A stretch of DNA of 64,000 bases from a phage. Location of the stretch: assembly GCA_024673055.1 (NCBI GenBank), contig GCA_024673055.1_4537.1; one strand, 5' to 3'. A model generated the notes under the pieces. The model worked only from the letters and a program-made list of their open reading frames with translations. It ran no database searches and was not told the origin of the DNA. Position 1 is the stretch's first letter. Every line of letters starts with the position of its first letter. Below are positions 10,641-30,537 of the stretch, one piece after another. The position numbers and the translations under genes were made by a program.

Positions 10641-10670
10641 AAAGGAGCCATTTGGCTCCTTTTCTTATTT
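10641..10670. terminator. Bidirectional rho-independent terminator at the convergence of plus and minus gene blocks
   Basis: Perfect 9-bp inverted repeat AAAGGAGCC / GGCTCCTTT with a 4-nt loop, flanked by A-run and T-run; lies between the stops of convergent genes. Confidence 0.6.
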
Positions 10671-13337
10671 ATAATTGGAAGGAATGTTGTTATAATCAGA
10701 AAGTTTTGTGCAATACCTGAATAGGTAACTATTAGCTACTCCGCCTAATGTATTTGTTAATGTTGTTCCTGTTCCTGTAAGATTTGTGCATCCACTAAAG
10801 AAAGAAGATAATGCTCCACGTTTACCACAAACAGTTAACCCTGGGTTGTCATTAAAGATTTTATTAAAATCTGTAAGTGCTAAACAACCTTGGAATGTGG
10901 CTGTTAAAGAGGTCACTTTCGTTGGAATATTATCAAACATTCCTGCTGGAACTTCTGCAAGAGAGGTGCAATCTTTAAAGGTGTAAGAATATCTTGTAAC
11001 TTTTGATAGATTCTTAAATAAATCTGAAGGAATAGATGTTAAAGATGTACAACCTTCAAACGTGCTTGACATTGTTGTCATTGAAGGAAATAAAGCATCA
11101 CTGAATAATCCTTCAGGGATAGCTGTCAAACTTGTGCAGCCAGAGAAGATACCGCTTATAGATGTTCCGGTGTAAGATGTGTTACTAAAACAATCAGAAG
11201 TTATTCGTCTTAAGTTAGCACAACCTTTTAAGAATTGTGAGGCTGGGCTTGTAGAATAACCAATTCTGTTGCCGCCCCATAATTCTAAAAGATCTGGATT
11301 TGCTTCCATAGACACATCAACACTATTCACTACTGAAGCACTTGCAAATTCAATAGCCAGTCTATATTCTCCTGCTGGATAACTATCCACTGTAGAGAAA
11401 GCTTTATTTCTAAATATTACTTTATTTGAAGGTATTACAACGTCATCCACCTTAACTACAAAGTTAGCTGGTGTGACAGTACCCGATAAAATTGGGAACG
11501 TAATTGCCCCATCTGCCGAGTGGTTGAAATATCCGTTTAGAACCGTTAAACTACTACTCGGAGATGGAGCTAACTCCTTTCCCGCAACAGCGTTCACCGT
11601 TAAATAAGAACTATCAGAAGCGGTAACAACACCTTGATATGTAGCTGTGCAACCAATCCTACAACCACCATCACCAACACCAGTTATTACACCAGTTGTA
11701 GGATCTACTGTAGCAACACTAGGATCTGTAGTTGTATACTCAACAACCATACCAGGTAAGCTTGCTGCTCCTGTTGGTGTTATTTCTGCTACCATTGTTT
11801 GTGTTGTTCCTACATCCATCGCAGATAAGCTAGGGGTGTAAACACTCAATGTTGAAGCATACCCTCCAGAGGTATCTGATAAAGTTGTTCCTTCAGCGTT
11901 TAAGGCTGTCATACCTGCATCAAAACCACCTTCTGCATGGAAAGTCATTAAACCAGTAGATGATATTGTCATGTTTGCAGGGGCAGAAGAAGTGTATTTA
12001 ATATTGAAAAGTTTACCTCCTTCTGGGCTAACAGAATGTGTCAACTGTTTAGTTCCACCTACAATACAAATTCCTAAAGAATCTGTAGTTAAGCTAGTTG
12101 CCAGCACATCTCCCGTAATCACAGAGCTTGCTATCGGTGTGAATTTATTATAATTTAGACCACTGTTGAACAGATACGAGGCTTTCCCATCTTTCCAAAT
12201 ACCGGAATAATACATATCCCCGTTATAAACGAAAAAGGTTCCTTGATAACCTAATTGGTTAGTAATATCCATATTCAGCGTATGAACGCTTGTGAGCTTG
12301 TTTATATCCCAGGAACCCACTCCTTCAGGTTTAACTGGTTTTCCCACTTGGAGTGGATCTCCGCTCGCAGAATCATACCCCAAACCTAAGTTTGCAGTGT
12401 AGTTCTTACCAATAGCCCACAAGGAATTATTGATCCCAACGAAAAAAGAGTGGCGGCTTGGTGGAAATTTCCATGTTGAGAAACCTGCTGCAAAGGTGTC
12501 CAGTTTAGTGTAGGTTGTTTCTGTATTAGACCTAACATATAAGTAGTTTACTGTACCCGTGCCGCCGGAGGTATCTCCTACAACTATTGTCTGGGAAACT
12601 GTATTGATGTAATCTTTGACATACACTGTTTCAGTAGTGGATATCGTGGCATTGACAAAAGCGGTTGTTGTGTTATTATTACCTGCTAAACCTTTACTAG
12701 CTCCACAAACACGCAAGGTTCCCACATTGTTGACATAAGAGCATTGGTTGTAACCTGCATCAAAAGCAACTGCTGAACTTGTTATCTGACGAGGAGTAGA
12801 AACTTCGTTAGTAGTGCTTGCACCTAAACTACCTACTGTGTTTTGACCCGATCCATAAAGAACACCACTATTCATTAACCAGAGAGTATTGTTATACCCT
12901 CCTTTAACCTCTTTAAGATTGGCTAAAGAAATAGTCCCTGTTATTACAGATGGAAAGCTGGTCCAAGTAGTTACACATGCATCCGTACCACCTGCTGCTA
13001 TAGATCCTACCAACCCTGCTGTCAATCCTGAATATTGCCATCCCCCACTATTAGTTTTAATAACAAAACAACGATCTGCGGTAAACACATCCGCTACTAC
13101 AGTAGAAGCTAAGTGGAAATTATTGAATCGTGCACTACGAGTTCCATCTGCAATCTCACCAAAGAGGTTTGCGCCTTGAGTAAACAATCTACCATCATTA
13201 AGCAAAATTGCTAAACTACTGTTAGAATTACCAGCGTTATCTGGGTAATCTAAAGTAATTACTTTTTTAACAATACCTGCTGGCAGAGGAACGACACCAG
13301 TACTGGTCATAATAGTAAATATTGGAATTGGAAACAT
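10665..13337 (-). CDS. Receptor-binding tail protein with Ig-like (Big_2-like) and BspA-type leucine-rich-repeat C-terminal domains
   Basis: C-terminal tandem repeats F-x-GC-TSLT-x-IP-x-x-LF (five or more copies), a Big_2-like segment (VAEITPTGAASLPGMVVEYTTTDPSVATVD) and N-terminal RCC1-like G-x-N-x-x-G-x-LG motifs. Confidence 0.6.
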   Translation of the reverse strand: MFPIPIFTIMTSTGVVPLPAGIVKKVITLDYPDNAGNSNSSLAILLNDGRLFTQGANLFGEIADGTRSARFNNFHLASTVVADVFTADRCFVIKTNSGGWQYSGLTAGLVGSIAAGGTDACVTTWTSFPSVITGTISLANLKEVKGGYNNTLWLMNSGVLYGSGQNTVGSLGASTTNEVSTPRQITSSAVAFDAGYNQCSYVNNVGTLRVCGASKGLAGNNNTTTAFVNATISTTETVYVKDYINTVSQTIVVGDTSGGTGTVNYLYVRSNTETTYTKLDTFAAGFSTWKFPPSRHSFFVGINNSLWAIGKNYTANLGLGYDSASGDPLQVGKPVKPEGVGSWDINKLTSVHTLNMDITNQLGYQGTFFVYNGDMYYSGIWKDGKASYLFNSGLNYNKFTPIASSVITGDVLATSLTTDSLGICIVGGTKQLTHSVSPEGGKLFNIKYTSSAPANMTISSTGLMTFHAEGGFDAGMTALNAEGTTLSDTSGGYASTLSVYTPSLSAMDVGTTQTMVAEITPTGAASLPGMVVEYTTTDPSVATVDPTTGVITGVGDGGCRIGCTATYQGVVTASDSSYLTVNAVAGKELAPSPSSSLTVLNGYFNHSADGAITFPILSGTVTPANFVVKVDDVVIPSNKVIFRNKAFSTVDSYPAGEYRLAIEFASASVVNSVDVSMEANPDLLELWGGNRIGYSTSPASQFLKGCANLRRITSDCFSNTSYTGTSISGIFSGCTSLTAIPEGLFSDALFPSMTTMSSTFEGCTSLTSIPSDLFKNLSKVTRYSYTFKDCTSLAEVPAGMFDNIPTKVTSLTATFQGCLALTDFNKIFNDNPGLTVCGKRGALSSFFSGCTNLTGTGTTLTNTLGGVANSYLFRYCTKLSDYNNIPSNYK

Positions 13338-13344
13338 TTAAACC

Positions 13345-13376: not shown

Positions 13377-13378
13377 TG

Positions 13379-15403
13379 TTATCGTGTTACAACAACCATG
13401 TCCACGACATTACCCACACCAGGATACGTTAATTGCAAAATTGTTACTGCGTTAGCAGTAGTTGCTATTTCTGTATCATTCAGTGCTCCATAAGACGCAT
13501 CTAGTGTAACCGTGTGTCCCGTTGTATCTTGAATCAAATAAATCATTGCTGAAAACGCTTTAGGCTTTGTAGAGCCAGTGACACCAGGCCATGCTCCAAC
13601 TGTTAAAGCATCGGTTACTGTAACAACATACATATTGGAAGTTCCAGAAGGAGTCCAAGATGCTCCAGAGTTGGCAGTAGTTGTTTCAAGTTCCATGAAA
13701 CCTGCTGTAACTCTAGTTGGTGTTATAGCTTCCGTAGGATCTGATCCTGATATTTCAATCCAGTTCCCATCAGAACGACCATACGTCAAGCCGTCTTGAG
13801 GTGCTTCTGGTATACTAGGAAGAGTTCCTATAAGTGTCCAAGTAGAAGAATCTGTTTTCTTGAACACTGCTCCAGTGGTAGTATTGAAGGCGTAATCATT
13901 GATAACACCGTCTCCTGCGACTGGATTAGTTGTTGCTACAAACCACTGTGCGCCGTCCTTACCGTTGGTCCCATCAGTACCGTTGGTTCCGTTTGTTCCA
14001 GGATCACCCTTATCTCCTTTATCCCCTTTTTCACCTTTGTCGCCTTTAATACTTCCCATGTCAATAAAAGATGCGGAATTGGTGTCTTGATCGTAGGTAT
14101 AGATGTAAAGATTACTAGTGTCTTCAGTTAAATAGGCATCGCCATAGTTATTATAAACAGGGAGAGCTTCACTGTTCGGAACATGACCTTTAGCTGTAAT
14201 TGATGTTCCTCCAAGACTGCCAACATTCATCCATTCCGTAGCATCTTGAACCCAAACATATAAATCATTATTAATTTTATATGCATCACCCACTTCTCCG
14301 GTAGGAGGAAGTTCAGCTTCACTGTTCAGAACCCCGATAATATCTAAGCCTGATCCTGTTGCACCCACTGGTCCTTGTGGACCTAGTTCACCTTGTGGAC
14401 CTCGCTCTCCTTGATCACCCTTGTCTCCTTTTGGACCTTTAAGTGAGGCAATAAAATCTACTTCTGTCCCTTCATTACCAGCATCCAGCCAACTTTGATA
14501 TGCAGATTTCCCTTCATCTCCATCTGTTCCATCAAGACCGTCTTTACCTGCCTCACCTTGTGGACCTTGAGGACCAACAATATTACCCATGTTGACCCAA
14601 GCTGTCCCATTAGAAACATAAAGATTACCATTGATAGAATAAGCTTGACTTACGTTTTCAGAGTTTGGTTGTGGTAAGTTACTTGTAGAAGGCAAATCCC
14701 CACGATAATCAAAACCGTTGGCGTTAACACCAGGTGCTCCCTGTGGCCCTGTAGGACCAACATCACCTTTATCACCTTTTATAGAGGTAAGAAAATCATA
14801 AACAGATCCTGTATTACCATCTGCCAACCATACCTCGTAAGCTGATTTACCTTCTGGCCCAAGAGAAGAAATAAGTTTCCAAACAGAACCATCCCAAGCG
14901 TAGATTACATCACCTACGATATAACCATCCCCTGCAACGTTACCTGTGGATGGTAGTTCACTAGTGCTTGCTAATGATCCTTTAATATTAAGTTGAGCAC
15001 CAGTATCCCCTTTCAAAGAAGCAAGCCATTGTGCTTCTGTTCCAACAAAACCATTATCAAGCGCGATCTGATAAGCCGATTTACCAGCTTCAGGTATTGT
15101 TTCCGACAGATCATCAATCTGTTGCTGCATTGCCGTAAACTTGGCATTGATAATTGCTATATCATCAGCGGTCCCAACACTTTGCCATGCAAGGGAAGAA
15201 ATACCACCTGTGGTGGCTGGCGTAGAGTTTGCTGGAACAACTTTAGGAAAAGTTCCTTTCCATTGGTAATAATTCCCTTCTGCTGCTAACAGCAAAACTT
15301 CACGGGAATTACGTAATGTAAAACCTGCCTCAAAGCTGCGACGTTTTCGATAAGTAGCTTCTACCAGATCGGCTATCGCACTATTAGGTCTTGTTAAATT
15401 CAT
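13379..15403 (-). CDS. Tail fibre protein with collagen-like Gly-X-Y repeats
   Basis: Several G-X-Y runs (GPQGPQGEAGKDGLDGTDG; KGDKGEKGDKGDKGDPGTNGTNGTDG), a thrice-repeated module KSAY..WL..G..G...DF..SLKG, and a conserved fibre N-terminal motif (YQWKGTFPKVVPANSTPATTGG). Confidence 0.7.
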   Translation of the reverse strand: MNLTRPNSAIADLVEATYRKRRSFEAGFTLRNSREVLLLAAEGNYYQWKGTFPKVVPANSTPATTGGISSLAWQSVGTADDIAIINAKFTAMQQQIDDLSETIPEAGKSAYQIALDNGFVGTEAQWLASLKGDTGAQLNIKGSLASTSELPSTGNVAGDGYIVGDVIYAWDGSVWKLISSLGPEGKSAYEVWLADGNTGSVYDFLTSIKGDKGDVGPTGPQGAPGVNANGFDYRGDLPSTSNLPQPNSENVSQAYSINGNLYVSNGTAWVNMGNIVGPQGPQGEAGKDGLDGTDGDEGKSAYQSWLDAGNEGTEVDFIASLKGPKGDKGDQGERGPQGELGPQGPVGATGSGLDIIGVLNSEAELPPTGEVGDAYKINNDLYVWVQDATEWMNVGSLGGTSITAKGHVPNSEALPVYNNYGDAYLTEDTSNLYIYTYDQDTNSASFIDMGSIKGDKGEKGDKGDKGDPGTNGTNGTDGTNGKDGAQWFVATTNPVAGDGVINDYAFNTTTGAVFKKTDSSTWTLIGTLPSIPEAPQDGLTYGRSDGNWIEISGSDPTEAITPTRVTAGFMELETTTANSGASWTPSGTSNMYVVTVTDALTVGAWPGVTGSTKPKAFSAMIYLIQDTTGHTVTLDASYGALNDTEIATTANAVTILQLTYPGVGNVVDMVVVTR

Positions 15404-15460: not shown

Positions 15461-15465
15461 TTCCA

Positions 15466-18400
15466 TTAGGTTGTTGGCACATCTACTACTGGCGTTGGGC
15501 GAATAACCGCAGTATTACCTACAGAAACATTACTGGAATCATTAGGTATGGTTTTAATTCTAACTCCAGCACTTGTAGGCGTTACAATTGGATCTGCAAT
15601 GTCTATTTTAACTGGGTTAGTCCACGTATCATTATCTTGATAAGGTGCACGAGTAATAACTGTGTCCAAATCTGCTCCACCTACACCAGCGCCAGGAATA
15701 CGGATACGTGTCCCTGCTGACAGAGGGTAATGATACAACCAAGAAGCATTTGTTGCTGTCCCGTTAGGAGTCAAGTTCTGTGTCAGGAAGGTATCTCCTG
15801 CCTGTGTAGCTCGAATACCGAAAGCTGGAATATCTGGAATATATGCCCCACTTGTTGTTACAAGGAAGAACGTATTATCCGCCTTGACTATCATATCACC
15901 TTTGTCAAACTCTTTCCCTGTTGGGAAATGCATTCCATCAATGTTTCGACTAGGATTAGGCTCTAAGTAATAAACTTTGCCCGTTGTCCCTACAATAGCT
16001 CCAATACCACCTGCGATATTGGTATACATATTAGCTTCAACATTACAGTTGACACGATGAATATCCGAGTAACGGCAACGGCTCCACTGTGGACGACCAG
16101 TAACCATCGTCTTGCCATCTGGGTAACAGTTTACGTTAACCATTTCAAGAACAGATTTTTCTCTACGGAAGAATCCATCATAAAATGTCCCTGGACCAGA
16201 TTCAGGTTGACCAACACAATCGAAGATATTACAGGTGATATTAGACATTGAAAGCCAAGAAGCTATACCGAACAACTGCAATGCAGCGCAACGAATATTT
16301 TCAAAGCTAACTCTGTTTTCATAACCTGGCCCAGCGGAAACTCCCGCAAAAACACGCCCAGTTTTGGTGTGAATGTTACGAACAGAATAGTTAAAACATG
16401 GATTTGAAGGTCTGCCCTGTGCCGGAACTACCGGATTACCCTCTTCGTCCAGAACTGCGTTAGTTCCCCACTCCAAATAAATCATACGGATATTACTTGC
16501 AAGTGTGCTACCGTCTGTTTTAGGCTCTCCATAAACACCGTCAATCGTAAAATCTTTACTTCCGTACATTACAACTGCGCCAGTTGCCAAACCTGTCCCA
16601 ACAGATACAGTCTGATCTGGATCGCCATGAATGTTTTCGATAGAGATATTACGACCAACTTCTACGTGGACAATCTGACGACAACGTTTTGCAAAAACGT
16701 TACGAATTGTAATATTCTTGCAATATTGATCATCAGGGATTCCGTAACCATATGGTCCTTTACCAGCTACACCGATACCGATACCCCAGTTGGACAGAGG
16801 AATAGGAGCGTTAGTCCCATCGATATTAGACAGGTAAATATTCTCAATCACACAACCATCGTCATAATGTTTATTGATGACGTTCAGTTCTATTGCATCA
16901 CCTTGCATGTCCATGAAGGTAAGGTTACGGAAGACACCACGTGTTACTGGTTCCCCTGTTCCTTGTTGAAGGATGCCATACAACCCGTTTTTAAAAGTAC
17001 AGTTATCAATTTCAAAAGTACCTGATATTGGGTTGCCTTGGAATACCAAGCTACCAACTTGACCTGCGCGAGGAGCACCGTCCCACAAACAATCGAACAT
17101 GCGCACAGCACCACCCCAATACATAACACGAGAGTTACGGAAAGTTGTGCCTTCTACTGTAGCATTTTGCACACGATAGTCGCGTTGACCACGGAACACA
17201 CCCCCACGCAAAGTGATACCTTGAATATCAAAAGAGCTTGTCGTGAAAGTCATATCGCAACCGTAAGCATCGAGAATCTTGCTTTTCGAAGCTTTTGCTG
17301 CTAACAGTGCCGCTTGGAAAGCTGCTTCTGGTGTGGTATAGGTAGTTGTATTGTTAGCAAATTCGGACAAGTAGACAACATCGAATAAATCGTTGTATGT
17401 TCCACCACGAGGGGTTAACAGTCCTTCTGTATTAGTCAGAACCCATGCATTTGGACCTAATCCTCCGCTCGTCTCCAAGGTATCGGAAGCCAAAATACTT
17501 TTTGGTAAACTTCCAGCCCAACGATAACGACCAGCGCCACGTCCAATCGTCTGATTTTTAGCTGTCAGAGTTACATTATTACCAAAGCTTGTAGGCAAAT
17601 GAACAAACTGTCCACGCTCAACAGCCAGTGCAGAAAGGTCTACAGATCCTCCAGAATAAGTCATTACTCCAGAAATAGACAAGGATGTTAAAGTGCCTGT
17701 AATGTTAGGAGGTAATGTGTAGGAAGACTGCGCTACCGGATCATACAGAGCTTTAATCCCTGTTAACGATTGACCTGCTGTTGCGTAAGCCACCTCATCA
17801 TCTAACAAACCATACTTACGAGCAATAGTTTGCAGAGGGACTTTATCCATGCTTTCTGTTAGTTCTTCCGTTTTTGTTTCTAAACTAACAAGACGGTTCT
17901 CTAGATTAGGATCTGTATCTGCTGAAGCTACGATTTTGCCAATATAAGCAAAAAGTTTGTTTGGCAGTCCTGTTGCAGGATCGTGTCCCAAAGGTTCAGA
18001 TAAGATGATCTTACTATCTTCTATACGGAAAGCTTCCCCCAGAACCTGAATAACACCATTGATCGTAACAATAGCACTATCAAAGATGTAAGGAGGACTA
18101 ATTACTGTTTCATAACCAGTTGCACCAGAATATACCCAAGGGGTGACTTCTGTTGCCAATTGTTCTGTCTTCAGTCCCCACAATACCCAGTTGTTATCTC
18201 CTACTGGAGTCCCTTGCATAGGGATTGGGTTAACCAATGTAGCGTTAGGGGCATAGTAATAACCGCTCAATACTCCATTCTGGAAATAACGAAGTTGGTT
18301 AAAAACTGTTTCGTTTGTGCCTTGCGCCCAATCCAATGGGCTTTTAAAGAAAAAGTTGTCAACAAGGGCTTTTCTCAGGGTTGGTATCAACCCTGATTCT

Positions 18401-18519
18401 GTTTCAATACTCTCTGTAGCACTTCCATTAATAACATCATGGAGTTGGTTAGATGAGAAAATAACCAGGTCTACGCCCTGTTCGAGAGACGTTGCTGGAT
18501 ATGTTGGGAATGTTGCCAT
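15466..18519 (-). CDS. Tailspike / depolymerase-like protein (right-handed beta-helix-like)
   Basis: 1017 aa with repetitive N/G/T-rich beta-helix-like segments (NITIRNVFAKRCRQIVHVEVGRNISIENIHGD). Fold is inferred. Confidence 0.6.
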   Translation of the reverse strand: MATFPTYPATSLEQGVDLVIFSSNQLHDVINGSATESIETESGLIPTLRKALVDNFFFKSPLDWAQGTNETVFNQLRYFQNGVLSGYYYAPNATLVNPIPMQGTPVGDNNWVLWGLKTEQLATEVTPWVYSGATGYETVISPPYIFDSAIVTINGVIQVLGEAFRIEDSKIILSEPLGHDPATGLPNKLFAYIGKIVASADTDPNLENRLVSLETKTEELTESMDKVPLQTIARKYGLLDDEVAYATAGQSLTGIKALYDPVAQSSYTLPPNITGTLTSLSISGVMTYSGGSVDLSALAVERGQFVHLPTSFGNNVTLTAKNQTIGRGAGRYRWAGSLPKSILASDTLETSGGLGPNAWVLTNTEGLLTPRGGTYNDLFDVVYLSEFANNTTTYTTPEAAFQAALLAAKASKSKILDAYGCDMTFTTSSFDIQGITLRGGVFRGQRDYRVQNATVEGTTFRNSRVMYWGGAVRMFDCLWDGAPRAGQVGSLVFQGNPISGTFEIDNCTFKNGLYGILQQGTGEPVTRGVFRNLTFMDMQGDAIELNVINKHYDDGCVIENIYLSNIDGTNAPIPLSNWGIGIGVAGKGPYGYGIPDDQYCKNITIRNVFAKRCRQIVHVEVGRNISIENIHGDPDQTVSVGTGLATGAVVMYGSKDFTIDGVYGEPKTDGSTLASNIRMIYLEWGTNAVLDEEGNPVVPAQGRPSNPCFNYSVRNIHTKTGRVFAGVSAGPGYENRVSFENIRCAALQLFGIASWLSMSNITCNIFDCVGQPESGPGTFYDGFFRREKSVLEMVNVNCYPDGKTMVTGRPQWSRCRYSDIHRVNCNVEANMYTNIAGGIGAIVGTTGKVYYLEPNPSRNIDGMHFPTGKEFDKGDMIVKADNTFFLVTTSGAYIPDIPAFGIRATQAGDTFLTQNLTPNGTATNASWLYHYPLSAGTRIRIPGAGVGGADLDTVITRAPYQDNDTWTNPVKIDIADPIVTPTSAGVRIKTIPNDSSNVSVGNTAVIRPTPVVDVPTT

Positions 18520-18522: not shown

Positions 18523-18858
18523 TTACCCCTTATTCTGTGTACGTTTAACTATGTCATCTAGCATCATTTGGATAGTCGCATTCTTGAGGTCCATAATCTT
18601 TTCAATTTTTTGCTCAAGGGTGTTATTATTTGCCATTAATGTAGAGTTAATTTGATTTAGCATCTGGGTAAGTTCGGCTTTAGTTGCATAAGTTGATTCA
18701 ACAAAGACCAACTTCTTCTCTAGCTCTCGACTTTTCTCCTCCATTTCCTCAAGATCAGAGCCGAATTTATCCATTTTTTGTTTGAAAAAGAACCAGATGA
18801 CTCCGATTAAAGGGATTATTGCATCCTTTGCAAGTCCCCATGCTTCTTGAAATTCCAT
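18523..18858 (-). CDS. Hypothetical membrane-anchored coiled-coil protein
   Basis: N-terminal hydrophobic helix (IIPLIGVIWFFF) followed by a charged coiled-coil-like region. Confidence 0.45.
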   Translation of the reverse strand: MEFQEAWGLAKDAIIPLIGVIWFFFKQKMDKFGSDLEEMEEKSRELEKKLVFVESTYATKAELTQMLNQINSTLMANNNTLEQKIEKIMDLKNATIQMMLDDIVKRTQNKG

Positions 18859-22604: not shown

Positions 22605-22846
22605 TAGTCATCCTCTTTGGTAGATTGTGATCTGCCCCAGCGTAAATCAATAAGATTTTTCATGAGGCGAGAAGGAGTTATCATGAAAACAAAAGCCCAA
22701 CCCATCCATTCAGGAATTTCTTTTTCTATTCCTAAAAAGATAAACATGCCTGTCATAACCGACATGCCTACAGCGTTCCAGACTTTCGTAGAACTGACTT
22801 TATTATCAGGATATGTACAGAACATACCTATTAAAAATTTTCTCAT
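22604..22846 (-). CDS. Small membrane protein (two predicted TM helices)
   Basis: Hydrophobic segments (VMTGMFIFLGI; WMGWAFVFMITP); start overlaps the adjacent gene. Confidence 0.4.
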   Translation of the reverse strand: MRKFLIGMFCTYPDNKVSSTKVWNAVGMSVMTGMFIFLGIEKEIPEWMGWAFVFMITPSRLMKNLIDLRWGRSQSTKEDD

Positions 22847-23151
22847 AGTGCGTTCCCATTACTTTTTAAATCACGAGATACAGCTAATTCCCCAAGGTCT
22901 ACAGAACCCGCTGAATGCACAAGTACAGCAGCACTAAGACTAATGGCAGTAATACCTGAGGCAATATCAGCAGGTAGGGAATACGCCCTTTGCGTCTCCT
23001 TATCATAGATAACCTTATACCCACCCAAATCCACACCAACTGAGAAGTAAACAACCTCAGATTGTTTGACTCCAAAGTAACGGGCTACTGCTTGTTTATT
23101 GGTTAAGATTCCGGTTGAACCTTTACCACCTTGGGAGAACATTTCGTTCAC
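22843..23151 (-). CDS. Hypothetical structural protein
   Basis: 102 aa ORF in the late operon. Confidence 0.4.
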   Translation of the reverse strand: MNEMFSQGGKGSTGILTNKQAVARYFGVKQSEVVYFSVGVDLGGYKVIYDKETQRAYSLPADIASGITAISLSAAVLVHSAGSVDLGELAVSRDLKSNGNAL

Positions 23152-23390
23152 AACAACCTCTTTGTTTTTCTAAGTAAGCCCCTCTTTGGAGGGGCTTGCA
23201 GTGGTAGTGACAACACTTTGAGTTAGTACGATAGTAACTAAAGACAAGATTAACCCTGCTACGATATGTTTTCATCATTTTATCACATGGCGATGAGATT
23301 CGCTTGCAGGACATAGTTTGTGTGAGTCGTAATGAAGTCCATGATGTCACATTTATAATTTCCCCGCCGAAGCGGGGTTATTGTTTGCTC

Positions 23391-25490
23391 TTACATACTG
23401 CTTATGAACTCAAGCTCGTAAAGCTGAACACGGTCTGTTGTGATATTTGCCTCAAAGTACGTTCCATCGTAGCTAGCAAGTTTCACATCATTTATATGCC
23501 CAGCATAGGCATCATCATACATAAAAATAACCTGACCTGTTCCTTTACCTACATACTTACACGTCCAGGTTCCTAGGGTTGTAGTGTTATTCGCCAGAGC
23601 GATTGTTGTCTCTACACCGCCTGTAGCGATAACTCCATATGCAGTGTTAGCTACATATTTAATACCAAAGTAGTTACCTGACGCGACAGAGCCACAAACC
23701 AGATAACCCGCTAAGGCTGTGACACCTGATGGTATGGCAAATGCCACTGCAAATCCAAGGTAGTTAGAGTTCTCAAACTGCCTTACCAAACGACGCTCTC
23801 GCTTATATCTCTGGATTGCAGTACCCCCAGCAGTACCAGCTCGAACAACTAAGCCACCTTCTACATAGTATTCGATACCAGATCCAGTACCGGTTACAGT
23901 ATTGGTGAACTTGTCATAATCCTGAAATTGCGTATGGTGGCGGGTGGTATCTAGTCTGAAAGAGGATGTCACACCGTTGATGGATTTGGTGGCTGTTTCT
24001 ATAATGACTCCAGCCTGTACACCATCAACCCGTGATTGTGCCACTTTACCTATTGCCATACCAAGGTCATTAGCGATTATTGTCCCGCCGATAGCCACTG
24101 CTACCCACGATTTGAGCACACCAGACATAGGAGCTAAAGCACTACCAATGCGAGTGGAGTTTGACATGATGGTCCCACCATGTTTAACCACCATACCCTT
24201 GTCATTTATATCTGTCCCAAAATCACAACCTTCAACACTGATAGTAGAGTTATATGCCTCTATACACTTGTCGACTCCAACACCATTGAAAGAGCATTTA
24301 TTAACGGCCCCGCTAGTGCAACCGTAAAATTCAACTGAACAATTCTCGTCGCTGTGGGTTCGATTGGTAAAGTTCAGGTTTTCTAAGTTAGGTGAGTAAG
24401 GCGTACCACCGCAAGAAAATACTTGTGCAGATCTGTAACTTACTTTTGTGCGGTCTTTGGATTTACTGGTAATAACCAAAATAGCCTGTTGACCGGACTC
24501 AGGCGGGAAGTTTGGAGTACACCCTCGTTTATTACGAATCACAAGGTCTTCATCGTAGGTTCCATCGGAAACCTGAATAGTAATAAATTGCCAGTAGTTG
24601 TCCGGCACCGCGTCAATGGCGGCCTGCATAGTAGGGTAGTCCTCTGGCACGTTTACCGTAACGTTGTAGGTGTAGACGCCAGGGACGGTAGAGGAATCAA
24701 CCCCGTATTGTTTGATATAGTTACGATACGGATCACCCCCGCCAATTGAGTTGATAAAACCCTCAATGCGAACTTTATTTGTTGTTGAGTATATATATCC
24801 GTTTTCACCTACATCTACGCGGAAAAGACGCGGGATTGTCAAATCCTCTTTAATCTCAACAGGGACATTAATGTAAACGCGACCACGACCACTTGCTATA
24901 GCTCGCTTTAATGCCTGAGTATAGTCTGGAGCGATGGGATCGCCGTCTCTAACGTAAGCACGAATGTCATCGTTAACTTCATCTCGCCCACCTATAAGGG
25001 TGAATCCTTTGCTGCTAGTTAATTCGTTTCGCAATGAAGCATTACCAACACTAACCCATGCACCTGTTCCAACACCACCTGTTGATGTAGGGGTTGAGTC
25101 AGCGGGAACAGCTTTAGGGAAAGCACCATCCCATGTATAGCACTGTCCACCAGCAATGTGCCAAACAGCATCGGTTGAACTATTGGCTGTCGCCCCTTCT
25201 TCAAAGCTACCATCAACAAGAGTTAACCCAGCCTCGGCAAGACTACGACACCACTGTTCACGATCATTAAGAAGATTGTTATTCAACTCTTCCTGAACAG
25301 TATTACCATTTGAGGATTGTATTAAATCTGCTCCATCTGTATCTTTCAACTGGGTGGCTAAAACCACCCCAGTGTCAGTAAGAAATTTGGAAACTGTGCT
25401 TTTAACAGTCTTATCAGGTTGGTCTAAAACCAGGTAATCAGAATCATTAACTTTTGATGTTTCGGGTAAATTAGTAATTGTAGTTGACAT
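23391..25490 (-). CDS. Tailspike / tail fibre protein
   Basis: Shares the motif Y-x-W-x-G-x-FPK-x-VPA-x-STP-x-x-TGG...AW-x-SVG with the 13379..15403 fibre; 699 aa with beta-rich repeats. Confidence 0.6.
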   Translation of the reverse strand: MSTTITNLPETSKVNDSDYLVLDQPDKTVKSTVSKFLTDTGVVLATQLKDTDGADLIQSSNGNTVQEELNNNLLNDREQWCRSLAEAGLTLVDGSFEEGATANSSTDAVWHIAGGQCYTWDGAFPKAVPADSTPTSTGGVGTGAWVSVGNASLRNELTSSKGFTLIGGRDEVNDDIRAYVRDGDPIAPDYTQALKRAIASGRGRVYINVPVEIKEDLTIPRLFRVDVGENGYIYSTTNKVRIEGFINSIGGGDPYRNYIKQYGVDSSTVPGVYTYNVTVNVPEDYPTMQAAIDAVPDNYWQFITIQVSDGTYDEDLVIRNKRGCTPNFPPESGQQAILVITSKSKDRTKVSYRSAQVFSCGGTPYSPNLENLNFTNRTHSDENCSVEFYGCTSGAVNKCSFNGVGVDKCIEAYNSTISVEGCDFGTDINDKGMVVKHGGTIMSNSTRIGSALAPMSGVLKSWVAVAIGGTIIANDLGMAIGKVAQSRVDGVQAGVIIETATKSINGVTSSFRLDTTRHHTQFQDYDKFTNTVTGTGSGIEYYVEGGLVVRAGTAGGTAIQRYKRERRLVRQFENSNYLGFAVAFAIPSGVTALAGYLVCGSVASGNYFGIKYVANTAYGVIATGGVETTIALANNTTTLGTWTCKYVGKGTGQVIFMYDDAYAGHINDVKLASYDGTYFEANITTDRVQLYELEFISSM

Positions 25491-25498
25491 TTTTACTC

Positions 25499-27652
25499 CT
25501 ATATATAAAATTTTTGTGTTGTTACTAAATCTTCTCCAGATTTAGTAGCTAATGTAATTCCACTTATGGTAGCAATCTCAACATTTGCTTGTTTAAGAGT
25601 GATATCTTGCAAATAACAATTCAAAGGCACATTACCCATATAGAAAACTTGGGATTGAGAATTAACTACCGTGATAGAATCGTGCATTATTTGAGGATAG
25701 GCCCATATATATTGTGTAAGTCCATTGAACTTATTGGCGTTCAACACTATGTTACCTATAATCATTTTCCAAAGATACGTGCGGTAGTTTGATTCAGGAT
25801 CAAAGCCATACAAAGGTGCAAGAGTAGCATCTGGAACAAAACCTGCAAGATAGTGAATATCAGAATATTCAAAACCTAATTTTTCATGTGGTATGGTAAT
25901 TGCATCAAATGCTTTCATCATTTTACCTTCCAGAAGCCAGTCGTAACACTCCGAACAGTAAAAATCAAAAGCTTCAGGAATGTAGTAATCAGACGGAAAG
26001 TTAACTTTCTCCATCAATCCGTTGCCAATAATTGATGGTAAGAATGGAAGCAATGTTACTTTAGCTCCTGGATAAGTTGCTCTGGTGTCTGTTGCAAACT
26101 TTGTAACTCTTAACCCTAGTTTACGAGACAAAAATGCATAGTATTCGTCAAATGGTGTTCCTGTTTTATAATTATCTATTGTTCCTGCATCTTGTGCAAA
26201 TAAGCCTGTTTCTGTATTGAATGCCAGTTTGGTAGTGTAATCATATATACAAGGCATTTTACTTGCTGTATTATACCACCACCAAGGTTCACCAATTTGA
26301 ATTACGACTGGAATATTGTTAGCTTGAGAAATAGATGCTATTTTGTTAATAACATTTTGCAAATATTCCATGCCTTCGTCAATAGTTGGAGACAACACGT
26401 AACTAGGAGGCTTATACCCTGTTGCTGCAAGAGCATCGTTCCAATCATGCTGGACCCATTCAACAGGACAAACTGTGCTCATCAACTCAAAACTTAAAGA
26501 GTTCATTATTGTGTAACCCTTCTCGTTCGCTATAGAATGGAAACTATTTAGCCAAGCTTCTGTAGCTGGATTCAGGAAGACAGATCTATTTAAAGCCCAA
26601 GATGTTCCGTTCCATGAGAACTCATAATAGTGAGACATTCCGTTGTAATGGTTAATCATTCCACGATAACCTAGTGCATATGTATTATAAATAACTCTCT
26701 CTGGAGTCAGGTTATACATATCATCATAAGATGTGCACATGCGAATATCATGTTCAGGCTGGACAAGGTTGCTGACTTTCATCATACTGTAACCAGAAGT
26801 AGGTTCAAGAAGAGTGAAAGTAAACCAAGCCTCTTGACTGGCAATAGGTACAATCTCTTCTATTTCTTCATACCTTGCTGTAATCAAAGAGAAGAAAATA
26901 TTATCTACAGCACTCATATCCAAAGGAATATCATTATTAGGGCCAGAAAAGATATTACCAAAATCTAACTTTATTGTGGCTGTTTTACCATCTTCTGAAA
27001 TATCTGAAGCGTAGAATCCTAAACTGACATAATGAACACTTTTATCCAGGAGAGTTACAGTCAAAGTCGGCACCAAAGGTTCTTCTTTAAAACCTGGCAT
27101 GTTTTGACTAATTTCCATTTTAAACCAAAGTTTCTCTGAACTTAAATCTGTGTGAGGCAAATACCCAACACCTTTATGGTCATATTTGTCAACTGTACTC
27201 CAGATAACCCCTGCCAAACCTGCTGTTGTTCTGTTTACAAATCTTGCAGTAAAAGAGTCTCCATGAGATACAATAGAACAACTTTCCGTTGCTTGAGAAT
27301 CTATTGTCCAATACATAGGAGAGAACATTTTAACGTCTTTTGTAGTCCAAGTTATTGGAGTAGTATTTTCTTGGATAGTAGTTATAATACAATTGATGGT
27401 TGTTTCAACCATCATGTTATTTTGACTAATCCCTGAAACTTGGAGGGAGAAGTTAAGATCTATTGAGTTCTTTGGTCGTTCAAATACTTCAACCACAATA
27501 GTAGCAGAATCAGCATCATCAGGGAACACAAGTGTTCCCGATTTTGCAATATAATCTCTACCAGCGACTGCTGTTCCGTCAACAGTCGTGTAGTTAAATG
27601 AACTCGCATTTACTCTCTTGTCTCGCGTGACAGTAAATATAGCTTGTTTCAT
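25499..27652 (-). CDS. Large structural protein, possible polysaccharide-degrading tail protein
   Basis: 717 aa in the baseplate/fibre region; aromatic-rich segments (GEPWWWYN). Function inferred. Confidence 0.4.
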   Translation of the reverse strand: MKQAIFTVTRDKRVNASSFNYTTVDGTAVAGRDYIAKSGTLVFPDDADSATIVVEVFERPKNSIDLNFSLQVSGISQNNMMVETTINCIITTIQENTTPITWTTKDVKMFSPMYWTIDSQATESCSIVSHGDSFTARFVNRTTAGLAGVIWSTVDKYDHKGVGYLPHTDLSSEKLWFKMEISQNMPGFKEEPLVPTLTVTLLDKSVHYVSLGFYASDISEDGKTATIKLDFGNIFSGPNNDIPLDMSAVDNIFFSLITARYEEIEEIVPIASQEAWFTFTLLEPTSGYSMMKVSNLVQPEHDIRMCTSYDDMYNLTPERVIYNTYALGYRGMINHYNGMSHYYEFSWNGTSWALNRSVFLNPATEAWLNSFHSIANEKGYTIMNSLSFELMSTVCPVEWVQHDWNDALAATGYKPPSYVLSPTIDEGMEYLQNVINKIASISQANNIPVVIQIGEPWWWYNTASKMPCIYDYTTKLAFNTETGLFAQDAGTIDNYKTGTPFDEYYAFLSRKLGLRVTKFATDTRATYPGAKVTLLPFLPSIIGNGLMEKVNFPSDYYIPEAFDFYCSECYDWLLEGKMMKAFDAITIPHEKLGFEYSDIHYLAGFVPDATLAPLYGFDPESNYRTYLWKMIIGNIVLNANKFNGLTQYIWAYPQIMHDSITVVNSQSQVFYMGNVPLNCYLQDITLKQANVEIATISGITLATKSGEDLVTTQKFYI

Positions 27653-27660
27653 TTTACCCC

Positions 27661-30537
27661 TTACTCGGTAACGTCCACACTAATGTTTGCCATTGTCAAA
27701 ACAGTAAGTGCAGGAATATTGCTCGAATCCAAAACAGGTGATGCATTTTGGGGATTAAGTTTTTTGTATAAAGCATACAACCCAAAACCACGTAACAACT
27801 CTCCAGCGTGGAAGCCAAAGAAGACTCCGTTATCACTGTCTGGTCTAGGAGCAGCACTCCAACAACCATTCATAACGTGATTAGGACCAAGAACAATATA
27901 GTTTTCCTGAATAAGTTCAAAACAGCGGTCTGCTACTATTTTAATGTTAGGAATTTCTGAATCATATCCAGCCATCCCCATTATAGCACATCCCGCCATA
28001 AAGAGCGCAGACATGTGACTTGTAAAGTCATCTACAGGCGCAGCCACTTCTCCGTTGGGATAAAATATTGTTGGTGTTCTTCCTTCGTTGTTATCTTGGA
28101 ACCACTTCAGGTAGTTGATCCAGTTTTTACAAACTGTTAAAAGTTTTTCAGGAACTTCGGCTCCTCGTCGCTTTAGTTCGTATACCGTATGACACGCACA
28201 GAAGAATGCTCGTGCTTCATAACCATCCCAAGCTTTATCGTTCCAATGATACATTGTGAACTCATTTTTGTTTCCATATTTATGAGCATCCCAACGATCC
28301 CAAACATAAGCTTGTGCCATTGGCCCAGGCATTACAGGGGCAAACTTATTATAAAACCACATTTGTGAATCATATAAAAAGTCTATACTGTTGTTCATAC
28401 GAACCCAGTCAATATCTCTCCCTTTAAAACAATATAAGGATGGGTATTGATAACCTGGGTAAGGAATACCACGCCAACCGTCATATAATGCTGTGTTAGG
28501 ATCACTAATATTGGAAAATGGAATGATTCCTGGAGTATAATTCAAACTGTCAAGTTTGTAGTCCAGTATTGTACAATCTCCAAGTTTTGCTGTATAAGGA
28601 TTTTCAGATGAAACTGTAACCCTGAAATACATTGTGTAATCATCACCAGCGGCTGAAGAATACAAAGATGGGATATCGTTAACACAATAAAAATCGATTG
28701 CCCCTGTCAAGCCATTTGCAGGTTCAGAATCCAATGCAATGTTGATCTGATCAACAGCAGTCAGGTTTATTGACGAAGGTTTTGTCTCTGTGTCGTTATG
28801 ATCGGGTTGCCAAGTGCTTAATTTGAAATCAGCAGGACTTAAAGCTTTAGTAACCCATGTAGAATTTGTTTTTTCTAACATGGCCCACCATCTCCAACCT
28901 GCGGAATCCGTAATAGTGATGTTAAAATCATCTGCGTATGAACGATATGTAATAGATTTTAAATTGGCTGTTTTAGTTGGTGTTAACCAAAACCCAACAG
29001 TAAAACCACCATCTGAATCCATATTAGCAGAAACTATCTGATCACTATTTGTCCCAGCAATACCAGTTGCATATTTATATTGTATCACAGTATTGCTTCC
29101 CCAGTCAACAATAATTCTGGGTTCAGCAATAATATATACACCACCTCCAGGAGGTTCTGTGCGCATAAAACTAGATAAAGGTATATCCATCTTAGTCATA
29201 TTAGCTGCACCAAGAGGTAAGCCACAACGATATGTCACTGTGTCTGTTTCACTCTTAGTTTTGCTTAATTCTAGCTCTGGACGGAAAAGAACACCTTCCC
29301 CTGCATCATCTACACCTTGAAACTCAATACGCAGTTTTGAATTCTGATCTACTCTGAACCAAACTGCCTGTTGTTCTAGAGTTGTTTGTGCTGAAACATC
29401 TTGGCGAATTACTGTGTATCCTAATTCGTCACGAGAATATTTAGGTATTGCTGTAGATGGGTATGAGTAATCATACGAGATACCATCTGTAAAAGGAATT
29501 ATTGCTGTCGTAGATCTACGGAAGAATTTATCAAACATATCGATGTTTGAGTAGTCTTGACACAACAATAAAGAAGATTGCCAGCAAAGCCAGTATTTTC
29601 TCTCTCCTGTGATCTGATACATCAAGTAGTTTGCATCACACCACCACGTTTCAGCATCGGAAGCATTATCTTGATAACCTAACCCTACCGGAACGTTTAC
29701 AGGACGGTTATGCCACATCTCATTACGCTTAAGCAGATATCCACCGTGTTCTACAGGGTTGCATGTAGCGTAGTTGAATTTATAATCACCGTTCACAGAA
29801 GCATTTTTAAGTTGCACTGTTCCATATTCTGCGAAGCTGTGACCTGTAGATAAAATGTTACCATCCCAATCAACTTTACGTCCTAGACGATCTATAATCC
29901 ATTCAACGTCCCACTGATCTCCGTATTCTTTCCAGTTGGTTGAACCATCTGGATTAGTTGCATAAACTGTTGCGTTAACGGAGTTCCAACCAAGATTGCC
30001 ATTGAAAGCAAACCAAGCTTTATCTAAGTATTCCCCCCAATGCGGTGCACCTTTAGGAATAACAGTCCTTCCGTTAATCCAAGTCATCATGCTACCTTTG
30101 AACCCACCGTGCGTAGGATACCCATCATCTGTGAGAGGGTAATGTGCTAAACGTGGTTCTTTACCATTGATGATCCAGTTGGGACGATACTTAGCCGGAG
30201 GATCAGGAATAGGTTGGCCCCCGAAGAAGTGATCTATATAGGCTTGCCAATACTTCTCGGCAGATTCAAGATATTTTTTATCCCCTGTAGCCAAATATGC
30301 ATAAGCAAAACCAGTGATAAGCACAGATTGACCTTCGGTAGTAGCGTCACCGTTTGGTTGCCCTTCCTGCGCTGTCCAGTTAATAAAGTGTCTGTTGTTC
30401 GCCAATACGTTTTGTGGGTTGATAATGTAATGCTGAACCGTAGGATCTATGGTAAGCCCAGTATTTCTTTCCAAAAACTGAACCAACCCTTCAATCAACT
30501 GAAACGTGTTGTCAATATTGTGCTTAACTCTTGACAT
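27661..30537 (-). CDS. Large structural protein with (alpha/alpha)6-like glycoside hydrolase signature
   Basis: 958 aa; segment ITGFAYAYLATGDKKYLESAEKYWQAY resembles six-hairpin glycosidase cores. Inferred. Confidence 0.4.
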   Translation of the reverse strand: MSRVKHNIDNTFQLIEGLVQFLERNTGLTIDPTVQHYIINPQNVLANNRHFINWTAQEGQPNGDATTEGQSVLITGFAYAYLATGDKKYLESAEKYWQAYIDHFFGGQPIPDPPAKYRPNWIINGKEPRLAHYPLTDDGYPTHGGFKGSMMTWINGRTVIPKGAPHWGEYLDKAWFAFNGNLGWNSVNATVYATNPDGSTNWKEYGDQWDVEWIIDRLGRKVDWDGNILSTGHSFAEYGTVQLKNASVNGDYKFNYATCNPVEHGGYLLKRNEMWHNRPVNVPVGLGYQDNASDAETWWCDANYLMYQITGERKYWLCWQSSLLLCQDYSNIDMFDKFFRRSTTAIIPFTDGISYDYSYPSTAIPKYSRDELGYTVIRQDVSAQTTLEQQAVWFRVDQNSKLRIEFQGVDDAGEGVLFRPELELSKTKSETDTVTYRCGLPLGAANMTKMDIPLSSFMRTEPPGGGVYIIAEPRIIVDWGSNTVIQYKYATGIAGTNSDQIVSANMDSDGGFTVGFWLTPTKTANLKSITYRSYADDFNITITDSAGWRWWAMLEKTNSTWVTKALSPADFKLSTWQPDHNDTETKPSSINLTAVDQINIALDSEPANGLTGAIDFYCVNDIPSLYSSAAGDDYTMYFRVTVSSENPYTAKLGDCTILDYKLDSLNYTPGIIPFSNISDPNTALYDGWRGIPYPGYQYPSLYCFKGRDIDWVRMNNSIDFLYDSQMWFYNKFAPVMPGPMAQAYVWDRWDAHKYGNKNEFTMYHWNDKAWDGYEARAFFCACHTVYELKRRGAEVPEKLLTVCKNWINYLKWFQDNNEGRTPTIFYPNGEVAAPVDDFTSHMSALFMAGCAIMGMAGYDSEIPNIKIVADRCFELIQENYIVLGPNHVMNGCWSAAPRPDSDNGVFFGFHAGELLRGFGLYALYKKLNPQNASPVLDSSNIPALTVLTMANISVDVTE

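Follow-up and report, generated by a model that had tools for sequence, protein, structure and literature searches.

The tail-fibre locus and its relatives

The window analysed here is a stretch of phage DNA of 64,000 nucleotides. All seven of the fibre-, spike- and depolymerase-like open reading frames announced by the earlier note are present on the minus strand between positions 10665 and 30537 (Table 1), the stop of an 890-aa frame and the start of a 958-aa frame. Interspersed among them are genes for two baseplate wedge subunits (495 and 209 aa) and for three small products: a membrane protein, a protein of 111 aa and a fragment of a tailspike, 102 aa long. A promoter scan returned sites no more numerous than in shuffled sequence.

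Table 1. Genes of the tail-fibre locus (positions in the window; gp numbers are those of phi92)
Protein	Position	Strand	Assignment	Matches
p890	10665..13337	-	RCC1-like propeller, Big_2 Ig domains (gp152 equivalent), swappable C-terminal third
p674	13379..15403	-	collagen-like fibre, gp151	Tail_spike_N E=1.3e-19; Pfam Collagen E=7.5e-12
p1017	15466..18519	-	beta-helix tailspike of gp150 (colanic-acid-degrading enzyme) type	phrog_6117 E=2.7e-282; Tail_spike_N E=2.3e-9
p111	18523..18858	-	small conserved protein annotated 'lipoprotein', gp149	phrog_15210 E=4.3e-70; 76% identity to gp149
p181	18868..19413	-	tail fibre assembly chaperone	Pfam Caudo_TAP E=3.2e-13; only 24% identity to gp148
p353	19414..20475	-	short tail fibre, gp147 (fibre III)	phrog_4465 E=8.6e-107
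p209	20485..21114	-	baseplate wedge subunit, gp146	phrog_4056 E=6.8e-81; 87% identity to gp146
p495	21117..22604	-	baseplate wedge subunit, gp145	Pfam Baseplate_J E=3.9e-8; 80% identity to gp145
p80	22604..22846	-	small membrane protein, gp144	phrog_1322 E=1.8e-27; 81% identity to gp144
p102	22843..23151	-	separate gene for a truncated tailspike N-terminal module of TD1 type	GTG start, ATG in relatives
p699	23391..25490	-	variable-slot tailspike at gp143 position	Pfam Tail_spike_N E=4e-22
p717	25499..27652	-	gp142 orthologue; Calx-beta, NCTSP_N and TIM barrel	77% identity to gp142
p958	27661..30537	-	gp141 orthologue; predicted (alpha/alpha)6 barrel resembling glycoside hydrolases, with insertions rich in beta structure
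p157	30537..31010	-	gp140 orthologue at gp140 position, small fibre-like; just outside 10665-30537	phrog_9017 'tail fiber protein' E=1.9e-68

Judged from its sequence, the window comes from an E. coli phage in Phapecoctavirus (Stephanstirmvirinae), a myovirus resembling phAPEC8 and ESCO5. Across 87-91% of the region, its DNA shares 96-98% identity with that of about 60 phages besides EF1-1, dw-ec and ESCO5, and the gene order of the region is the same in phAPEC8, ESCO5, EF1-1 and other Phapecoctavirus. Orthology to phi92 was judged by blastp against the annotated phi92 record, where we found orthologues up to gp152. Nine genes are 60-87% identical to those of the translated phi92 locus, with order and gp140-gp151 positions kept, and the syntenic block is flanked by baseplate hub genes on one side and by replication genes on the other. 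By this orthology, the region is the tail-fibre and tailspike cluster that corresponds to the 'multivalent adsorption apparatus' or 'nanosized Swiss army knife' of phi92.

The description of this arsenal as unusually large does not hold. The locus is conserved in all Stephanstirmvirinae and Vequintavirinae, the present copy is close to identical with those of many phages, and the presence of multiple fibres is already known for the group; conservation of the 'Swiss army knife' locus in Vequintavirinae and relatives has been reported (PMC8594841; PMC11984140). The finding is thus real but ordinary, since phages of the phAPEC8/phi92 type are already known to carry several sugar-binding and sugar-cutting fibres at once. 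Two neighbours of the fibre genes have known or suspected roles in phi92: the gp145 wedge is the direct docking site of fibres I and III, and gp140, the counterpart of p157, is a candidate fibre (PMC13450770).

Conserved fibres and spikes

The 1017-aa protein had been called a beta-helix tailspike, and its residues 426-1000 are indeed homologous to the crystal structure of phi92 gp150 (PDB 6e0v, E=1.4e-79), in addition to the Tail_spike_N match. A conserved N-terminus (aa 1-215) is followed by TD1 (about aa 229-305), TD2 (aa 302-361) and the enzyme body. Phi92 gp150 is a demonstrated colanic-acid-degrading enzyme (PMC13450770). While the N-terminus of p1017 is 75% identical to that of gp150, its body reaches only 33%, so that the substrate may differ.

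The collagen-like fibre is p674. Besides the Pfam Collagen match, it has 35 G-X-Y triplets in four runs; TD2 lies at its extreme N-terminus (aa 12-77), its C-terminal tip matches PDB 9cuy_g, and it is 60% identical to gp151. The predicted pair of short fibre and assembly chaperone was also recovered, as the adjoining p353 and p181. Residues 286-353 of p353 match the 'Short tail fiber' chain 9cuy_c (E=4.6e-23). Its 75% identity to gp147 is confined to aa 1-267, the C-terminal tip being unlike that of phi92, and the chaperone co-varies with this tip.

The 890-aa protein was presented as an LRR/Ig receptor-binding protein. Both elements are there, with Big_2 Ig domains and, at aa 702-890, seven F-x-G-C-x-S-L repeats of BspA/DUF285-type LRR-like character (a weak match to DUF285 or BspA-type LRR, E=0.018, and one to the designed LRR 4psj, E=6e-6), but the protein also contains an RCC1-like propeller and is therefore more than LRR/Ig. 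Residues 411-584 are 67% identical to gp152. The protein is found in Phapecoctavirus and is absent from Justusliebigvirus, the phi92-like phages (PMC12695924). About half of the relatives, phAPEC8 included, have another C-terminal third.

N-terminal modules and the variable tailspike

Two proteins were reported to share an N-terminal motif. The motif is real, at aa 46-77 of p674 (YQWKGTFPKVVPANSTPATTGGISSLAWQSVG) and aa 118-149 of p699 (YTWDGAFPKAVPADSTPTSTGGVGTGAWVSVG), but a third, diverged copy at aa 332-363 of p1017 brings the number of proteins to three. It corresponds to Pfam Tail_spike_N, the 'TD2' module of CBA120. A TD1-like stretch occurs in p1017 and p102, and PDB searches gave matches to CBA120 TSP1, TSP2, TSP3 and TSP4.

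The second spike of the earlier note, p699, carries Tail_spike_N together with a predicted beta-helix. We delineated an anchor (aa 1 to about 54), TD2/Tail_spike_N (aa 93-149), a low-confidence linker (aa 150-170), the beta-helix body and a C-terminal lectin-like beta-sandwich; CBA120 TSP1-4 are the best Foldseek matches of the AF2 model. The anchor is 93% identical to that of the phi92 endosialidase. The slot that p699 occupies, between the gp142 and gp144 orthologues, is variable: in nine related phages the spikes diverge after residue 54 or so, or after about residues 155-167. All nine share only the first 54 or so residues, and endosialidase alleles are devoid of the motif. The motif had been read as a common attachment domain with swapped distal domains. 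It does adjoin the swap junction, but the universal anchor is the stretch of residues 1 to about 54, kept even in the phi92 endosialidase. From these alignments, TD2 is a common module near the N-terminus, beside the swap junction, and is not the domain by which all variable spikes attach.

The body of p699 had no megablast match in a collection of 50,697 phage records. Protein comparison gives 73% identity to P22-like prophage tailspikes that have the PF09008 head-binding domain, and 54% to phage CBA6. The lack of a DNA match, together with the likeness to P22-like prophage tailspikes, points to module exchange. Two further ideas on p699 were dropped. Assignment as a CE8-type esterase relied on a Pfam Pectinesterase match that is below threshold (19 bits, for a cut-off of 27). 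An N-terminus common to p157 and p699 was suggested by a weak match of phi92 gp140 to p699 (E=2.8e-4), and was discarded because the window's own p157 gives no alignment.

The 102-aa fragment is 43% identical to aa 230-302 of p1017 and matches the N-termini of phrog_7992 and phrog_18484. Five relatives have the same truncation point; the copy is frameshifted in SF1-1, internally deleted in ECGD1, and absent from phi92 and ESCO5. Is p102 a conserved adaptor under purifying selection? The dN/dS ratio is ambiguous: close relatives give about 1, the comparison with ukendt about 0.15. The damaged SF1-1 and ECGD1 copies favour a relic. We rejected the adaptor; p102 is probably a decaying relic.

The shared modules also raise the question of a branched complex of the CBA120 kind, in which p1017 would dock on the baseplate as a hub spike and receive p699, p674 and perhaps p102. 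The occurrence of TD2 in three proteins and of TD1 in two, the matches to the four CBA120 tailspikes, and the 215 or so extra N-terminal residues that p1017 conserves with gp150 all speak for such a hub. The assembly rules established for this complex in Ackermannviridae have TD1 domains binding gp10-like XD domains (PMC11414711). However, a Pfam scan at the sequence level, as permissive as E<=1, detected no XD domain in aa 1-313 of p1017 or aa 1-100 of p699, and TD1, which in CBA120 does the docking onto XD3, is missing from both p699 and p674. Moreover, the first 54 residues are common to variable-slot spikes with or without TD2, gp150 lacks TD1-TD2 and yet phi92 has the same fibre set, and fibres I and III of phi92 attach directly to wedge gp145 (PMC13450770). 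We thus consider a branched complex very unlikely here.

The gp141- and gp142-like proteins

The two remaining large proteins, of 717 and 958 aa, exist as announced, but the glycosidase-like core attributed to one of them turned out to have a counterpart in the other: both have glycan-enzyme-like cores. The predicted structure of p958 has the (alpha/alpha)6 barrel fold of GH8/GH76/GH105-like glycoside hydrolases. Invariant D/E residues are present in the family alignment, and a profile of the family gave nothing significant against PDB sequences.

Pfam matches of p717 are to PF23845 (the NCTSP TIM barrel, E=5.6e-79), PF23844 (E=2.2e-16) and PF03160 (E=9e-11); the two NCTSP domains, TIM barrel and NCTSP_N, score 266.1 bits and 60.1 bits, above the gathering cut-off of 27. 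The protein is homologous to the non-contractile sheath proteins of N4, gp64 (PDB 9lc0_M, E=2.8e-30) and gp65 (9lc0_I, E=1.8e-12). Its GMSHY motif (aa 338-342) aligns with the same motif of gp65. A preprint that does not list Phapecoctavirus (bioRxiv 10.64898/2026.04.02.716166) proposes this motif as a marker for binding to the N4 glycan receptor (NGR).

Natural fusions connect p958-like proteins with the wedge protein on the one hand and, downstream, with p717-like or fibre modules on the other. They indicate that p958 and p717 belong to one assembly, and suggest that gp141-like proteins are baseplate-attached fibre bases carrying gp142-like modules. As a tentative extension, possible but doubtful at present, p958 and p717 may constitute a baseplate-attached lateral-fibre arm, with p958 as a hydrolase-like (alpha/alpha)6 'shoulder' on the wedge and p699 docked through its first 54 or so residues. 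Neither gp141 nor gp142 is among the candidates named by the 2026 cryo-EM study of phi92 (PMC13450770). If such an arm exists, it would assign a fibre density that still lacks a gene in phi92-type phages and would define a widespread family of phage fibre bases that has neither a Pfam entry nor a solved structure.

A probable host-recognition module

The region very probably constitutes a host-recognition module with several glycan-directed fibres and spikes, orthologous to the phi92 adsorption apparatus. A glycan-binding or glycan-enzyme-like fold was found in every one of the proteins, contrary to what the earlier note would have expected of internal components devoid of enzymatic or receptor-binding domains. 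Recognition of multiple receptors by co-encoded fibres and spikes was described for phi92 (Schwarzer 2012, as cited in PMC8594841, PMC11984140 and PMC13450770), and tail fibre homologues were detected in rV5 by virion proteomics (PMC3606486).

The multi-receptor or multi-capsule reading of the locus agrees with this accepted view of the group, but seven genes do not amount to seven receptors. Display of several fibre types on a single virion is known only from cryo-EM of phi92, which resolved three co-expressed sets of fibres, with gp147 as fibre III, while fibre II is without assignment and gp141, gp142, gp150 and gp151 were not placed in density (PMC13450770). With three fibre types, the seven genes probably build fewer assemblies.

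Are all these proteins then receptor-binding? A rival explanation holds that, p699 and p353 aside, the large proteins p958, p717, p890 and p674 mostly belong to a conserved scaffold of baseplate or fibres, with inactive glycan-enzyme-like folds and no independent receptor recognition, the phage being effectively mono- or bivalent. It gains from the conservation of p958 and p717, which keep 43-55% identity across phages of many host genera and show no allelic variation within Phapecoctavirus, from the fusions that present p958-like proteins as a base for other distal modules, and from the BASEL study, which reports most of the locus as conserved and these phages as possibly monovalent in effect on any one host, for example K-12 (PMC8594841). 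However, many acidic and aromatic residues are invariant in the p958 family, and the hydrolase-like barrel predicted for p958 is a well-formed one; p717 and the N4 receptor-binding protein gp65 have the GMSHY stretch in common; gp150 has its demonstrated enzymatic activity; and relatives have exchanged the C-terminal third of p890, a pattern expected for a receptor-binding tip. A largely structural role for these four proteins is therefore unlikely in our opinion.

Taking the region as a host-recognition module, we can propose how it would work, by extrapolation from phi92 and N4. The p495/p209 wedge would carry several sets of trimeric fibres. The short fibre p353, folded with p181, would act as fibre III does in phi92, where it binds the LPS core irreversibly and triggers contraction. 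The exchangeable tailspike p699 would cap an L-shaped fibre, which in phi92 is fibre I, its body being presumably a beta-helix of the O-antigen- or capsule-specific type gained by module exchange. In the same scheme, the ligand of p717 would be a conserved glycan on the cell surface, probably the N4 glycan receptor; p1017 would be an exopolysaccharide depolymerase spike of gp150 type, p674 and p890 may be further adhesin-like fibres, and p958 would be the baseplate-attached base that bears distal modules. Enzymes and adhesins together could allow passage through different glycan layers on different hosts, with strain specificity set by the variable slots, namely the p699 body, the p890 C-terminal third and the p353 tip.

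Broad host range makes such phages candidates for therapy and biocontrol, and their exchangeable tailspike slot lends itself to host-range engineering. What the window itself adds to a known scaffold is of limited practical value: a further tailspike allele, probably specific for O-antigen and also present in P22-like prophages. The more useful by-product is the indirect evidence on which conserved genes form the fibre base.

Comparison with known systems

Like N4 gp64 and gp65, p717 has NCTSP_N and TIM-barrel_NCTSP domains, and it aligns to gp64 as well as to aa 346-416 of gp65, GMSHY included. Unlike them, it consists of one 717-aa chain that begins with a Calx-beta domain; its phage has a contractile tail, and the protein cannot form a non-contractile tail sheath. 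With CBA120 and other Ackermannviridae, the locus shares TD1/TD2 N-terminal modules, beta-helix bodies and body exchange at the TD boundary. However, neither gp10-like XD domains nor a TSP4-type anchor were detected here, the spikes have their own lineage-specific N-termini, and their genes are dispersed among baseplate genes instead of forming one tsp cluster.

The tail loci of other Phapecoctavirus, phAPEC8, ESCO5 and EF1-1 among them, are 96-98% identical in nucleotide sequence over about 90% of the region; the p699 body, lacking any DNA match in the phage collection, sets the present phage apart from them, as does the p890 C-terminal third, which differs in about half of the relatives. Finally, phi92 (Justusliebigvirus) has the same gene order over gp140-gp152, 60-87% identity for gp141, gp142, gp144-gp147, gp149 and gp151, and the same variable-spike anchor (aa 1-54, 93%) and gp150-type spike N-terminus. 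Its variable slot, in contrast, contains an endosialidase where the present phage has a beta-helix tailspike. The body of the gp150-type spike is only 33% identical and is preceded here by an inserted TD1-TD2, the short fibre ends in a different tip and has a diverged chaperone (24% identity), the 102-aa TD1 fragment is present here but not in phi92, and the 202-aa gp152 has grown to 890 aa, a propeller and an LRR-like tip included.

Identity of the region and its relatives

The seven fibre, spike and depolymerase-like proteins described in the earlier note are all present, and the ends of the region coincide with ORF ends. They belong to a long minus-strand block of late genes. Megablast against 50,697 phage records returned 203 matching 10665-30537, 64 of which cover at least 80% of this query. 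The best matches (EF1-1, dw-ec, DE16, ESCO5, Ro121c4YLVW and others) share 96-98% identity across 87-91% of its length, and relatives having a taxonomy belong to the genus Phapecoctavirus (Stephanstirmvirinae). The annotated EF1-1 and ESCO5 records have their genes in the same order, which is also unchanged in phi92, the type phage of Justusliebigvirus, a sister genus. Public data include 100% copies of p699, the variable tailspike (proteins are designated here by their length in aa): one lies on a 151-kb contig deposited as part of an E. coli assembly, the other on a 144-kb Logan contig, flanked by the same genes. The window therefore comes from a phage genome already public and absent from the phage collection searched. 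The arsenal had been called unusually large; within this phage group it is not, as many sequenced relatives carry the same locus. The region is a conserved feature that has already been published, and many sequenced genomes are nearly identical to this one.

Elsewhere in the window (50316-52425, minus strand) lies a cluster of 10 tRNA genes according to ARAGORN, or 11 according to Rfam, including two tRNA-Met genes as well as Ile, Pro, Gln, Gly, Thr, Asn, Ser and Arg. Such tRNA clusters are known from several large lytic phages.

Coordinates of selected features
Feature	Sequence	Position	Strand	Description
p102	window	22843-23151	minus	TD1-type tailspike N-terminus alone, between p699 and a membrane-protein gene
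p890	window	10665-13337	minus	RCC1-like beta-propeller, Big_2 Ig, seven repeats
P0220	L011, Logan SRR10874396 contig	6691-11364		p958-like + p717-like NCTSP fusion, SU10-like podovirus tail gene cluster
P0206	L012, ENA ERZ1755730 contig	7001-10294		P2 gpI-type wedge + p958-like fusion, directly after gpJ

Anchor and body of the variable tailspike

Two of the proteins were said to share an N-terminal motif, taken as a common attachment domain. The motif, which corresponds to Pfam PF18668 (Tail_spike_N), the 'TD2' module of Ackermannviridae tailspikes, is indeed found in p674 (aa 46-77) and p699 (aa 118-149), the pair being 51% identical over 57 residues, but a diverged third copy lies at aa 332-363 of p1017. 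The Tail_spike_N matches span aa 12-77, 93-149 and 302-361 of these proteins, respectively.

We compared the spikes encoded at the position of phi92 gp143 in nine phages (EF1-1, Ro121c4YLVW, ukendt, nieznany, PaulScherrer, ECGD1, ESCO5, SF1-1 and phi92). The first ~51-54 residues (MSTTITNLPETSKVN...ATQLKD) are common to all nine. Similarity to p699 is kept to residue ~155-167, TD2 included, in five phages, and the other four diverge right after residue ~54: nieznany, and the endosialidase-type N-termini of phi92 gp143, ESCO5 and SF1-1. The first ~54 residues are thus the universal anchor of the slot. TD2 does adjoin a swap junction; it is an optional neck module beside one of two such junctions, not the common attachment domain.

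In an AlphaFold2 model of p699 (mean pLDDT 71.6), a lectin-like sandwich forms the C-terminal part after a beta-helix, and the low-confidence linker at residues 150-170 falls at the swap junction beside TD2; the best Foldseek matches of the model are the four CBA120 tailspikes. Megablast of the p699 body (about 23391-24990) against the phage collection gave no match, the best record there covering 43% of a 22600-25500 query, and the closest phage match by tblastn was phage CBA6 (54% identical). A search of a large protein database with the body gave 80-86% identity to metagenome-contig proteins carrying Tail_spike_N, and 73% to a cluster of E. coli proteins labelled 'phage tailspike protein' with the P22-type head-binding domain PF09008; similar proteins also occur in Citrobacter. 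One and the same receptor-binding body thus circulates with at least three different N-terminal anchors. This is a case of classical tailspike module exchange and suggests O-antigen or capsule as candidate target. A Pectinesterase assignment was discarded, the Pfam match being below threshold.

The short ORF p102 is 43% identical to p1017 aa 230-302 and strongly matches the N-termini of several tailspike PHROGs. The same truncation point is found in EF1-1, nieznany, ukendt, Ro121c4YLVW and PaulScherrer; SF1-1 has a frameshifted copy and ECGD1 one that lacks about 50 internal codons, and ESCO5 and phi92 gave no match at the DNA level. Close relatives differ by 7-8 non-synonymous versus 1-3 synonymous changes. 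The start codon is GTG in the window and ATG in relatives. Most likely, p102 is the remnant of a second tailspike gene that lost its body. A Shine-Dalgarno-like AAAGAGG precedes its GTG. The 239-nt spacer after the p699 stop (23152-23390) holds two GC-rich hairpins, CCCCGC-TTCG-GCGGGG (23362-23377) and AAGCCCCTC-CAAA-GAGGGGCTT (near 23175-23200), both without a clear T-tract on the coding strand.

Other fibres and spikes

The 'LRR/Ig' label given to p890 is right but incomplete. Besides Big_2 Ig domains (Pfam E=2.9e-9), the protein has an RCC1-like propeller, for which Pfam WD40_RLD and RCC1 scored below or near cut-offs and PDB matches to RPGR, HERC2 and UVR8 lend support. Its LRR-like repeats (aa 702-890; seven of 27-29 residues, form F-x-G-C-x-S-L) match DUF285 weakly (E=0.018) and a designed LRR protein; related alleles carry a precomputed DUF285 assignment. 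The whole gene is common to 34 of 68 matching records; in the others, phAPEC8 included, the match starts at query nucleotide 923 with nothing before. Among Phapecoctavirus genomes, the C-terminal third (10665-11587) is dimorphic: about half of the records do not match it at the DNA level, although the remainder of their gene stays 95% identical. Protein relatives have different C-terminal thirds, or none. This third is a second variable element, as would be expected if a receptor-binding tip sat on a conserved base.

Domain matches identify p353 as a short fibre and p181 as its Caudo_TAP chaperone. p674 contains four G-X-Y runs (35 triplets in total), and p1017 matches the phi92 gp150 crystal structure (6e0v, E=1.4e-79).

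A glycosidase-like core had been ascribed to one of the two further large proteins; both p717 and p958 have glycan-enzyme-like cores. p717 combines Calx-beta, NCTSP_N and an NCTSP TIM barrel (Pfam E=5.6e-79). Sequence and profile searches with p958 (phrog_2871, 27661-30537) found no Pfam family and no solved structure; its predicted model is confidently (alpha/alpha)6 hydrolase-like. The family is moderately widespread: among 1.84 billion proteins, clustering at 50% identity leaves 182 representatives with E<=1e-3, 73 of them with E<=1e-30. Relatives at 43-55% identity are named Salmonella or Stenotrophomonas phage proteins, or lie in Enterobacter and Pseudomonas assemblies, probably in prophages.

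Several relatives are gene fusions. In P0220 (1557 aa), residues 13-960 are p958-like (44%) and 968-1552 p717-like (51%); its gene adjoins SU10-type capsid and adaptor genes, upstream of Gp10_C proteins. P0206 (1097 aa) joins a P2 gpI-type wedge domain to a p958-like protein, and its gene directly follows gpV, gpW and gpJ homologues in a P2-like prophage, the normal site of gpI and the tail fibre gene. In P0209 and P0213 (about 1620-1634 aa), the p958-like part is followed by a fibre shaft containing repeats and then by a tip rich in glycine. From such fusions, it seems that p958-like proteins sit on the wedge and bear distal modules for receptor binding; p717 would be one of these in the window's phage. 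The seven proteins should not be taken as seven independent receptors.

In N4, gp64 and gp65 build a non-contractile sheath, gp65 being the receptor-binding protein (PMC13434306). p717 aa 361-606 aligns with N4 gp64 114-367 (E=2.8e-30), and N4 gp65 aa 346-416 also aligns with p717, GMSHY (p717 aa 338-342) being identical in both. A phi92 gp142-type short domain, with GMSHY as a perfectly conserved feature, was put forward as candidate determinant of N4 glycan receptor binding in Vequintavirus and Justusliebigvirus (bioRxiv 10.64898/2026.04.02.716166). [quoted passage not shown]

Comparison with known systems

In Ackermannviridae, docking onto the gp10-like XD domains that hub spikes carry is the role of TD1 and not of TD2 (PMC11414711). 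No domain of this XD type turned up in the N-terminal parts of p1017 and p699, so that the sequences do not support membership in a CBA120-style branched complex; structurally, such a complex would be possible but unlikely.

Identity of window proteins to the translated phi92 locus (blastp)
Window protein	phi92 protein	Identity
p958	gp141	83%
p717	gp142	77%
p80	gp144	81%
p495	gp145	80%
p209	gp146	87%
p353	gp147	75%, first 267 residues only
p181	gp148	24%
p111	gp149	76%
p1017	gp150	75% over aa 1-215; 33% over enzyme body
p674	gp151	60%
p890 aa 411-584	gp152	67%

The other two-thirds of p890 lack a phi92 counterpart, in agreement with the reported absence of this protein, named 'TfpM1', from Justusliebigvirus (PMC12695924). 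In the short fibre the shaft is conserved (75% identical), whereas the tip (p353 aa ~268-353) and the chaperone differ; tip and chaperone (18868-20475) co-vary relative to phi92.

The p958 fusions bear on the assignment of genes to fibres in phi92-type phages. For phi92 itself, cryo-EM published in 2026 resolved three fibre types on the wedge: gp147 was assigned to fibre III, the tip of the L-shaped fibre I was inferred to be gp143, and fibre II was left without assignment (PMC13450770). Virion proteomics of rV5 detected several homologous tail fibre proteins (PMC3606486). phi92 has been described as bearing a 'multivalent adsorption apparatus', and the whole group as having a 'nanosized Swiss army knife', a set of fibres and spikes that are expressed together and contain glycan-hydrolysing domains (PMC8594841; PMC11984140). 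Multi-receptor or multi-capsule recognition, the general interpretation proposed for this region, agrees with this established view.
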